Assembly (NCBI RefSeq): GCF_003334255.1
Contig: NZ_QOWU01000003.1
Source: Escherichia coli
Lineage (GTDB): Bacteria > Pseudomonadota > Gammaproteobacteria > Enterobacterales > Enterobacteriaceae
Strand: one strand, 5' to 3'
DNA: 64,000 bases
The translations under genes and the position numbers were made by a program. Below, one piece after another: positions 40,266 to 43,980 of the stretch. Numbering within the stretch: the stretch's first letter is position 1; each line of letters starts with the position of its first letter. A model generated the notes under the pieces. That model searched no databases, was not told the DNA's origin, and was given only the letters and a program-made list of their open reading frames with translations.

Positions 40266-42200
40266 TTACTTGTCGCCTAACTGCTCTGACATGGTGTTAC
40301 CCGGGTTCGGCGTACGCGGTTCATCAACCGGACGAGGAGCCTTTGGACTACCATTGTCGCCAGAATTGTTAGAAGCGCCTGGTTCTTCCCAGCCCGCTGG
40401 CGGACGTACATCGCGACGTGCCATCAGGTCATCAATCTGCGGTGCGTCGATAGTCTCATATTTCATGAGAGCATCTTTCATCGCATGCAGAATATCCATA
40501 TTGTCGGTCAGAAGCTGACGCGCACGATTATAGTTACGCTCAATCAGTGCTTTCACTTCCTGGTCGATGATACGTGCAGTTTCATCGGACATATGTTTCG
40601 CTTTCGCTACGCTACGGCCGAGGAACACTTCACCTTCTTCTTCCGCGTACAGCAGTGGACCCAATTTCTCAGAGAAGCCCCACTGAGTCACCATGTTACG
40701 TGCCAGGTTGGTCGCAACTTTAATATCGTTGGACGCACCGGTAGATACATGTTCCGGCCCGTAGATGATCTCTTCTGCCAGACGACCACCGTACAGCGTA
40801 GAAATCTGGCTTTCCAGTTTCTGACGGCTGGCGCTGATTGCGTCGCCCTCAGGCAAGAAGAAAGTCACACCCAGCGCACGACCGCGTGGGATAATCGTCA
40901 CTTTGTGCACCGGATCGTGTTCCGGCACCAGGCGACCGATAATCGCATGACCCGCTTCGTGGTAAGCCGTCGATTCTTTCTGCGCTTCCGTCATCACCAT
41001 GGAGCGACGTTCCGCACCCATCATGATTTTGTCTTTCGCTTTCTCGAACTCAACCATCGACACAACGCGTTTGTTGCCACGAGCAGCGAACAGTGCCGCT
41101 TCGTTCACCAGGTTCGCCAGGTCAGCACCGGAGAAACCAGGAGTACCACGGGCAATGATTGCCGCGTCGATATCGGGTGCCAATGGTACGCGACGCATGT
41201 GAACTTTCAGGATCTGCTCACGACCGCGAACATCTGGCAAGCCGACCACAACCTGACGGTCGAAACGGCCAGGACGCAGCAGGGCCGGGTCGAGAACGTC
41301 CGGACGGTTAGTCGCGGCGATAACGATGATACCTTCGTTACCTTCGAAGCCATCCATCTCAACCAGCATCTGGTTCAGAGTCTGTTCACGTTCATCGTGA
41401 CCACCGCCCAGACCAGCGCCACGCTGGCGGCCTACGGCGTCGATTTCATCGATAAAGATGATGCACGGTGCCGCTTTCTTCGCCTGTTCGAACATGTCAC
41501 GAACACGGGATGCACCCACACCGACGAACATTTCTACGAAGTCAGAACCGGAGATAGTAAAGAACGGAACTTTCGCTTCGCCTGCAATCGCTTTCGCCAG
41601 CAGCGTTTTACCGGTACCCGGAGGACCGACCATCAAGACGCCTTTCGGGATCTTACCGCCGAGTTTCTGGAAGCGGCTCGGCTCGCGCAGATACTCAACC
41701 AGTTCAGCAACTTCTTCTTTTGCTTCGTCGCAGCCCGCAACGTCAGCAAAGGTCGTTTTGATCTGATCTTCCGTCAGCATGCGCGCTTTGCTCTTACCAA
41801 ACGACATGGCACCTTTGCCACCGCCGCCCTGCATTTGACGCATGAAGAAGATCCAGACACCAATCAGCAACAGCATCGGGAACCAGGAGATGAAGATAGA
41901 AGCCAGCAGGCTTGGTTCTTCAGGCGGTTCACCGACAACCTTGACGTTCTTGGTCAACAGGTTATCCAGTAATTTCGGATCCTGAACCGGAATGTAAGTG
42001 GTATAACGGTTACTATCTTTCTTGGTAACGTTGATTTCACGTCCGTTGATACGCGCTTCACGAACCTGGTCGTTATTGACCTCTTGTAGGAAGGTAGAGT
42101 AATCCACCTTACGGCCATTAGACTCGCTGGGCCCAAAGCTCTGGAATACTGACATCAGCACAACGGCAATGACCAGCCAGAGTATTAGGTTTTTCGCCAT
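40266..42200 (-). CDS. ftsH: ATP-dependent zinc metalloprotease FtsH (AAA+)
   Basis: 644 aa from ATG 42200; Walker A (GPPGTGKT), second region of homology, HEAGH zinc motif. Confidence 0.97.
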
Positions 42201-42299
42201 GTCACTCAAGGGATTAACCTCTTATTACAACTGTGTTAAAAACAGCGTCAGGATACTCTATATCCAGCATCTTTCAAACTTTCGTCTGAAATCTCCCGG

Positions 42300-42929
42300 T
42301 TAGGGTTTACGCCCGGTCGCTACAATATACACTTCCCGCGAACGTGCACGAGAAGAGTCCGGCTTACGAACTTTGACCTTCGTAAACAGGGAGCGAATTT
42401 CCCTTAGATACTCATCGAAACCTTCGCCCTGGAACACCTTCACTACAAAACTGCCACCTGGCGCTAATACATCACGACACATTTCTAGCGCCAGTTCCAC
42501 CAGATACATGGCACGGGGGATATCCACCGCCGGTGTTCCGCTCATGTTTGGTGCCATATCGGACATGACAACCTGGACTTTGCTGTCGCCAACGCGCTCC
42601 AGCAGTGCTTTCATCACCAGTTCATCACGAAAATCGCCCTGAAGAAAGTCCACACCAACGATAGGATCCATAGGTAAAAGATCGCAAGCGATGATGCGGC
42701 CTTTGCCGCCAATTTGGGTGACCACATATTGTGACCAACCACCCGGAGCAGCACCAAGGTCGACAACCGTCATTCCCGGTTTAAAGAGTTTGTCACTTTG
42801 CTGTATTTCATCAAGTTTAAACCAGGCACGGGAACGTAACCCCTTTTTCTGTGCCTGTTGAACATATTTATCGCTAAAGTGTTCCTGAAGCCAGCGGCTG
42901 GAGCTGGCAGAACGCTTCTTACCTGTCAT
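42300..42929 (-). CDS. rlmE: 23S rRNA U2552 2'-O-methyltransferase
   Basis: 209 aa; FtsJ/RrmJ-type SAM methyltransferase. Confidence 0.95.
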
Positions 42930-42994
42930 TTAACTTTCCCATGGGGATAACTCATCGTAACCAATTGCATAAATTTTTACGCGCCTATTTGGTG

Positions 42995-43032
42995 ATATAT
43001 GGGAGATGGCGGTAGAATGACCCGTTTTCAAT
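42995..43032 (-). promoter_or_regulatory. Candidate sigma32 heat-shock promoter of rlmE-ftsH
   Basis: Minus strand ATTGAAAA (-35-like) then a 17-nt spacer then TCCCATATAT (-10-like, CCCCATnT class), about 60 nt upstream of rlmE. Confidence 0.5.
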
Positions 43033-43054
43033 CCCAACGTAAGCAAAAAATACG

Positions 43055-43348
43055 ATGAATCTGAGTACTAAACAAAAACAGCACCTGAAAGGTCTGGCAC
43101 ATCCGCTCAAGCCAGTTGTTCTGCTTGGCAGTAATGGTTTGACCGAAGGGGTGCTGGCCGAGATTGAACAAGCGTTAGAGCACCATGAACTCATCAAGGT
43201 GAAAATCGCCACCGAAGATCGCGAAACTAAAACCTTGATCGTGGAAGCTATCGTGCGCGAAACCGGCGCCTGTAATGTACAGGTCATCGGTAAAACGCTG
43301 GTGCTTTATCGCCCAACTAAAGAACGTAAAATCTCGCTGCCACGCTAA
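43055..43348 (+). CDS. yhbY: CRM-domain RNA-binding protein
   Basis: 97 aa (MNLSTKQKQHLKGLAHPLKPVVLLGSNGLTEGV…). Confidence 0.93.
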   Translation: MNLSTKQKQHLKGLAHPLKPVVLLGSNGLTEGVLAEIEQALEHHELIKVKIATEDRETKTLIVEAIVRETGACNVQVIGKTLVLYRPTKERKISLPR

Positions 43349-43436
43349 GATTATCCTAAAGTTACACACATTTGCTGTGTAAAACGAGGGGTTTTCCGCA
43401 GGCAGGAGAGCAAAATGCCACGCTCTGTTCGTTGAT

Positions 43437-43462
43437 AAAAGGCCGCATAGCGGCCTTTTTCC
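43437..43462. terminator. Bidirectional intrinsic terminator between yhbY and greA
   Basis: AAAA-GGCCGC-ATA-GCGGCC-TTTTT. Confidence 0.75.
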
Positions 43463-43503
43463 TTTCTTTACAATACATCAACATCTTGAGTATTGGGTAA
43501 TTC

Positions 43504-43980
<477 letters not shown>

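Follow-up and report, generated by a model that had tools for sequence, protein, structure and literature searches.

Canonical sigma-32 promoters of E. coli, such as those of dnaK P1, groE, htpG, hslVU, and grpE, combine a TTGAAA-type -35 element, a spacer of 13-14 nt, and a CCCCATnT-type -10 element, and they are bound by the sigma-32 holoenzyme both in vitro and in vivo. The published working consensus is CTTGAAA[11-15]CCCCATnT. In the paper on the structure of the sigma-32 open complex, the dnaKp1 promoter carries CTTGAA at -35 to -30 and CCCCATTT at -15 to -8, with +1 placed 8 nt past the last T. The rlmE-ftsH operon is described in the literature as being driven by a heat-shock promoter, and its genes rrmJ and ftsH are heat-induced and cluster with heat-shock genes (PMC3384335). 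RpoH also induces ftsH in P. aeruginosa, where the -10 consensus of this sigma factor is ccATcT (PMC9866376).

The documented ftsJ-hflB (rrmJ-ftsH) heat-shock promoter has the same locus, the same operon, and the same sigma factor as the promoter analysed here and is this very promoter. Herman et al. reportedly described, in 1995, one promoter of the ftsJ-hflB operon as being under positive control by heat shock and sigma-32, and the operon is said to be included in the sigma-32 regulon list of Nonaka et al. from 2006. Sigma-32 drives ftsH and FtsH in turn degrades sigma-32, a negative feedback loop that belongs to the textbook heat-shock circuit. The rlmE-ftsH sigma-32 promoter is thus already known, and its confirmation is biologically nothing new; the analysis below concerns which bases make up the promoter and how it is arranged relative to the promoter of the divergent gene yhbY.

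The window (the whole 64-kb stretch of E. coli DNA that was analysed, 64,000 nt long) has the local gene order folP (-), ftsH (-), rlmE (-), yhbY (+), greA (-), and dacB (+), where the signs give the strand. Adding 3,284,735 to a window coordinate gives the corresponding coordinate in K-12 MG1655 (NC_000913.3). The earlier note had placed a sigma-32-type promoter for rlmE-ftsH in a region common to rlmE and the divergent yhbY, and the location is right: per the ORF list and the RefSeq annotation, the interval 42930-43054 is exactly the whole 125-nt spacer between the two genes, whose ATG codons begin at 42929 on the minus strand (rlmE; K-12 3,327,664) and at 43055 on the plus strand (yhbY; K-12 3,327,790). 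An 801-nt region around this spacer was found at an identity of at least 99% in 5,426 of 5,426 complete E. coli genomes. Compared to K-12, the spacer differs at a single base, 42969, which on the minus strand is T in the window and C in K-12 and most E. coli genomes. Within E. coli, the spacer varies at 42993, 42969, and 42943, and none of these positions falls in either of the sigma-32 elements discussed below. The last of them is polymorphic (C/A) in some strains, and the variant breaks the sequence CCCCATGG beside the rlmE start. The start of yhbY itself has been determined by directed 5'-RACE at -31 from its ATG, with the sigma-70 -10 element given as tggcGGTAGAATgacc (Mendoza-Vargas et al. 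2009, PMC2760140 Table S1). The features of the region are collected in Table 1.

Table 1. Features of the rlmE/yhbY spacer and its surroundings, in window coordinates.
Feature	Position	Strand	Basis
rlmE (ftsJ/rrmJ) CDS, 23S rRNA U2552 2'-O-methyltransferase	42300..42929	-	ORF and RefSeq annotation
ftsH (hflB) CDS, downstream gene of the operon	40266..42200	-	ORF; K-12 annotation 3325001-3326935
Sigma-32 -35 ATTGAAA (consensus CTTGAAA; hexamer TTGAAA 43031-43026)	43026..43032	-	Sequence and conservation
Sigma-32 spacer, 14 nt; holds ATTCTA (yhbY -10 TAGAAT on the other strand)	43012..43025	-	Length of 14 in 80/80 loci
Proposed sigma-32 -10 CGCCATCT (consensus CCCCATnT)	43004..43011	-	Spacing and conservation
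TCCCATATAT, not the -10; last T of the proposed -10, discriminator, and start site (-8 to +2)	42995..43004	-	21-nt spacer; low conservation
Predicted sigma-32 start A (K-12 3,327,731), about +/-2 nt	42996	-	dnaKp1 register and invariant A
rlmE 5' UTR, about 67 nt including +1; varies between genera; no unusual structure	42930..42995	-	Conservation, fold, Rfam
yhbY sigma-70 promoter: -35-like TTGGTG 42989-42994, 18-nt spacer, -10 TAGAAT 43013-43018, TSS G43024	42989..43024	+	5'-RACE mapped onto the window
ftsH sigma-70 promoter in the rlmE-ftsH spacer: -35 region AGTTTGAAA 42280-42272, -10 AGTATCCT 42257-42250, TSS 42243	42243..42280	-	PMC2760140 mapped onto the window

Very probably, the spacer contains the known sigma-32 (RpoH) heat-shock promoter of rlmE-ftsH, made up of ATTGAAA, a 14-nt spacer, and CGCCATCT, with transcription starting at or near A42996. 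The -35 element had been recognised correctly before. The sequence quoted for it, ATTGAAAA, is present on the minus strand at 43032-43025, its ATTGAAA matches the consensus CTTGAAA at 6 of 7 positions, and TTGAAA is invariant across the 80 loci compared below. The -10 element, in contrast, had been assigned to TCCCATATAT, which is indeed present on the minus strand at 43004-42995 and whose end lies 66 nt from the rlmE ATG, in agreement with the claimed distance of about 60 nt. This assignment is wrong by 7 bp, since it implies a 21-nt spacer and a CCCAT core that is not conserved. The sequence CGCCATCT, located 7 bases further upstream and 14 nt past ATTGAAA, matches CCCCATnT at 6 of its 7 specified positions and is one base away from CCCCATCT, the -10 element of htpG and hslV. 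We therefore correct the annotated register such that the -10 element is predicted to be CGCCATCT at 43011-43004 and +1 to be A42996. The start follows from transferring the dnaKp1 register onto CGCCATCT; the exact base at which transcription begins is thus a prediction made from the sequence, and contact of the polymerase with CGCCATCT rather than with another element is likewise something that we infer. In the same register, the first base of the "extended -10" is kept as C-15, while -14 is a G instead of a C.

Spacing is the first property that separates the two candidate -10 elements. We searched the upstream regions of established K-12 sigma-32 genes with the consensus while leaving the spacer free between 8 and 24 nt, which yielded 12 clean promoters (dnaK P1 and P2, clpP, lon, htpG, clpB, grpE, hslV, fxsA, groS, ibpA, and htpX). 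Their spacers measure 13 nt in eight cases, 14 nt in three, and 11 nt in one, and none is longer. The 14-nt spacer that leads to CGCCATCT fits the published range of 11-15 nt, whereas the 21-nt spacer from ATTGAAA to TCCCATAT is outside of it.

Motif scores by themselves say less. The window holds 47 copies of the hexamer TTGAAA alone where 50.8 are expected, which is no better than chance. The combination TTGAAA-N13-15-CNCCATNT occurs once on either strand of the window, at the rlmE site, against 0.05 expected, although we formulated this pattern with the site already in view. We also carried out the scan with a sigma-32 position weight matrix (PWM) that the earlier note had proposed, using a matrix trained on just the 12 strong canonical K-12 promoters listed above. 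The spacing-correct rlmE site scored 14.0 bits and ranked first on both strands of the 64-kb window, ahead of a runner-up at 12.5 bits; the 12 canonical promoters, on which the matrix was trained, score 18.4-22.8 bits. An exact calculation and 100 shuffles agree that chance would produce about 3.7 matches at 14.0 bits in 64 kb when both strands are counted; at the scale of the window, the motif thus lacks significance when taken alone. Within the 125-nt spacer and on one strand, the chance expectation computed from the per-position probability is about 0.004. As a separate observation, the real window holds fewer sigma-32-like matches than its shuffles do (at 12 bits or more, 4 versus about 15; at 14 bits or more, 1 versus about 3.7), a shortage that may be an effect of composition or codon usage or may reflect avoidance of spurious sigma-32 sites.

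The phylogenetic footprint of the promoter was drawn from 80 Enterobacterales rlmE loci (75 distinct sequences) obtained by a protein-guided scan. The genera covered include Escherichia, Citrobacter, Enterobacter, Klebsiella, Serratia, Yersinia, Pectobacterium, Dickeya, Erwinia, Pantoea, Proteus, Providencia, Photorhabdus, Xenorhabdus, Edwardsiella, Hafnia, Budvicia, and Zophobihabitans. The best spacing-correct match takes the form (A/G)TTGAAA-N14-C(G/A)CCAT(C/A)T in all 80 loci, and the spacer is always 14 nt long. The hexamer TTGAAA at 43031-43026 is invariant in 74-75 of the 75 distinct sequences (99-100%). For the proposed -10, CGCCATCT is found exactly in 78 of 80 loci and as C[GA]CCAT[CA]T in all of them, with each column conserved at 99-100%. 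In contrast, TCCCATAT persists in 11 of the 80 loci, each of which belongs to Escherichia, Citrobacter, Pseudocitrobacter, Superficieibacter, or one Enterobacter sp. isolate, and positions 43002-42998 (-6 to -2), the CCATA of TCCCATATAT, show a conservation of 0.1-0.7 bits. Conservation resumes at the T-A-T of 42997-42995, where A42996 is present in 80 of 80 loci, and drops to about 0 bits past +12, in the rlmE leader. The invariance of CGCCATCT is best explained by sigma-32 because its columns sit between the -35 and -10 elements of the yhbY sigma-70 promoter, a stretch in which that promoter would leave the sequence free of constraint; the conservation of the block as a whole is in part also due to the yhbY promoter that overlaps it and to the 5' UTR of yhbY.

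We also considered whether the leader could act as an RNA thermometer or another cis-regulatory RNA. No Rfam match was retrieved in the spacer at E <= 1, and the predicted fold of the rlmE leader has no extra stability compared to shuffled sequences (z = -0.17). On both of these grounds, such an element was rejected.

Published binding data place sigma-32 at this spacer. Genomic SELEX with the RpoH holoenzyme gave a peak in the rrmJ/yhbY spacer with an intensity of 14.1, which is in the top three of the genome (PMC5493296). By ChIP-chip, the sigma-32 region SigH_324 covers 3325009-3326545 in older K-12 coordinates, i.e., 42252-43788 in the window, and an RNA polymerase peak covers 3325546-3325896 (42789-43139), while the sigma-70 region SigD_1318 spans 3325708-3326245 (42951-43488) (PMC3923258 supplement). 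These older coordinates were converted with an inferred offset of 1,978, and both SELEX and ChIP have a resolution of hundreds of bp, which cannot separate the two -10 candidates. A full-text literature search with the promoter sequence returned no match, and the rlmE/yhbY locus is unmentioned in the ROSE paper and in the ChIP-exo paper. What is documented for the rlmE promoter is its sequence, its spacing, its conservation, and sigma-32 binding at low resolution. Of the earlier claim of a sigma-32 promoter for rlmE-ftsH, then, the presence of the promoter in the spacer (by motif, SELEX, ChIP-chip, and literature) and its -35 element stand, while the register of its -10 element does not.

Taken together with the corrected register, a sigma-32 RNA polymerase would read ATTGAAA at 43032-43026 as its -35 and then CGCCATCT at 43011-43004 as its -10. 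Opening of the DNA would be followed by a start at or near A42996, and the resulting mRNA would carry about 67 nt of leader ahead of the rlmE ATG. Upon heat shock or protein misfolding, sigma-32 rises and transcription of rlmE and ftsH rises with it. Basal ftsH expression comes from other, sigma-70 promoters. The rlmE promoter shares with the canonical sigma-32 promoters the TTGAAA-type -35, the spacer length, the CCCCATnT-type -10, and binding by the holoenzyme. It differs from them in having an A for the C before TTGAAA, in having GGG rather than a C-rich tract upstream, and in having a G at -14 where the "extended -10" has CC. A consensus match that is weak in these three respects suits a modest induction.

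Such other promoters are on record. A sigma-70 start for hflB (ftsH) is listed as "Known" at -43 from its ATG (PMC2760140 Table S1), and with this promoter at 42243, ftsH does not depend on the rlmE promoters only. In EHEC EDL933, Cappable-seq detected a pair of strong, adjacent starts that lie 64 nt upstream of "oloz4542", an ORF antisense to yhbY, and RT-PCR showed that at 37 C transcription reads through into ftsJ-hflB. In the window, "oloz4542" corresponds to a 100-aa ORF at 42985-43287 on the minus strand, antisense to yhbY, and the EHEC starts correspond to a minus-strand start near 43350 (about 43345-43351), just past the yhbY/greA hairpin. The ftsH sigma-70 promoter and the read-through promoter account for basal expression and are no argument against the sigma-32 promoter.

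A few further features of this neighbourhood were recorded. The start listed as "rrmJ -416" is a single K-12 454 read (Mendoza-Vargas 2009) whose literal position, 43345, may place it near the EHEC Cappable-seq TSS; we did not rely on it, as its listed -35 box at 43087-43079 is inconsistent with that start. The hairpin between the convergent genes yhbY and greA, AAAAGGCCGCATAGCGGCCTTTT at 43437-43459, is perfectly palindromic and is probably a bidirectional terminator; weak, sub-threshold Rfam matches to STnc540 and STnc420 fall on it. The only significant Rfam match nearby is the greA leader (RF01769; 44076-44197 on the minus strand, 127.5 bits), which is expected upstream of greA. Finally, a 495-aa ORF at 40485-41972 on the plus strand runs antisense through ftsH, probably as a shadow of its reading frame.

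The alternative that fares best is one in which a single -35/-10 pair is used by both sigma-32 and sigma-70 and thereby provides basal rlmE expression as well. Wade et al. reportedly found in 2006 that sigma-32 and sigma-70 targets overlap, which favours such dual use, and the ChIP-chip region SigD_1318 does put sigma-70 over the spacer besides sigma-32. The sigma-70 signal is, however, accounted for by the yhbY promoter that was mapped there. In addition, a consensus scan of 42700-43300 for TTGACA-/TATAAT-like hexamers 16-18 nt apart found 0 sites on both strands, leaving rlmE without a sigma-70-like promoter of this form in that interval, and the position 17 nt past TTGAAA is occupied by CATCTC, a poor sigma-70 -10. 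We thus regard shared use of the elements by the two sigma factors as quite unlikely.

It could also be argued that the sigma-32-like motif is a coincidence, that the block owes its conservation solely to being the sigma-70 promoter and 5' UTR of yhbY, and that rlmE-ftsH is transcribed from sigma-70 promoters elsewhere, namely the read-through start at ~43345-43351 and the ftsH promoter at 42243. The yhbY TSS and -10 do map within the conserved block, EHEC does produce a sigma-70 read-through transcript over ftsJ-hflB at 37 C, and the sigma-32 PWM score is not significant alone. Against this, the eight columns of CGCCATCT are invariant within the yhbY sigma-70 spacer, where no constraint is expected, the RpoH holoenzyme alone binds the spacer strongly in vitro, a sigma-32 ChIP signal is present, and the operon is heat-inducible. 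A coincidental motif is, given these points, very improbable.

The pairing of ATTGAAA with TCCCATATAT (43004-42995) as the sigma-32 -10, which would move the start to near 42988, has even less to recommend it, and we consider the chance that it is correct to be slim indeed. It was put forward because TCCCATAT, taken in isolation, scores slightly higher than CGCCATCT as a -10 element (7.9 versus 6.3 bits), and it too matches 6 of 7 specified consensus positions. The 21-nt spacer, however, compares to at most 14 nt in the canonical set and 11-15 nt in the published range, and no alternative -35 is found 13-14 nt upstream of TCCCATAT, where the sequence reads CGGGTCA or ACGGGTC. The restriction of TCCCATAT to 11 of 80 loci, with core columns that are unconstrained, adds to this. 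The case carries a methodological caution: a reading based on the motif only took the better-looking but non-functional CCCAT, and it was spacing and phylogenetic footprinting alone that resolved the choice. As for the perfect CCCCAT core held by CCCCATGG at 42946-42941, 12 nt ahead of the rlmE start codon, its use as a sigma-32 -10 has a negligible probability and is effectively refuted by the missing -35 (no TTGAA-like sequence at 11-15 nt) and by the lack of conservation (it differs between genera and is polymorphic in E. coli at 42943, C/A), quite apart from a score of 4.4 bits and from the essentially leaderless mRNA without a ribosome-binding site that would result.

With the sigma-32 promoter read as ATTGAAA, 14 nt, and CGCCATCT, the promoters of rlmE and yhbY interdigitate. 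Each promoter has its -10 element inside the spacer of the other, that of yhbY within the sigma-32 spacer and that of rlmE within the sigma-70 spacer, so that the two -10 elements are found on opposite strands and one base pair apart. The -35 of each promoter is located just downstream of the start of the other, and the mapped yhbY start at 43024 and the predicted rlmE start at 42996 are separated by 28 bp. Both sets of elements can be followed across the loci: ATTCTA, the complement of TAGAAT, is kept inside the sigma-32 spacer in 76 of 80 loci, and C[AG]CCAA, the complement of TTGG(T/C)G, which lies at transcript positions +3 to +8 of rlmE, is kept in 58 of 80. The arrangement of the two promoters and their spacing are co-conserved across Enterobacterales.

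The closest described class is that of the bidirectional promoters of Warman et al., in which TSSs are 7-25 bp apart (mode 18 bp) and symmetrical sigma-70 -10 elements overlap (bioRxiv 10.1101/2020.01.31.928960). The yhbY/rlmE pair resembles this class in its close divergent starts within a compact conserved block and in having elements of one strand inside the promoter of the other. Nevertheless, it falls outside the definition of Warman et al., as its starts are 28 bp apart, its -10 elements are adjacent (43004-43011 and 43013-43018) rather than overlapping, and two sigma factors are involved.

From the interdigitated layout, we infer that the sigma-70 and sigma-32 polymerases cannot bind the two promoters together. 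This raises the idea of a sigma-factor toggle, in which a rise in sigma-32 would lead its holoenzyme to displace the sigma-70 holoenzyme from yhbY; we put this forward tentatively and consider it an unlikely outcome. The interdigitated pair is a neat system, open to testing, for possible competition between two sigma factors within a single compact bidirectional region. If the toggle is true, it would amount to a switch between two 50S-ribosome assembly factors, with YhbY going down and RlmE going up, that operates without a transcription factor.
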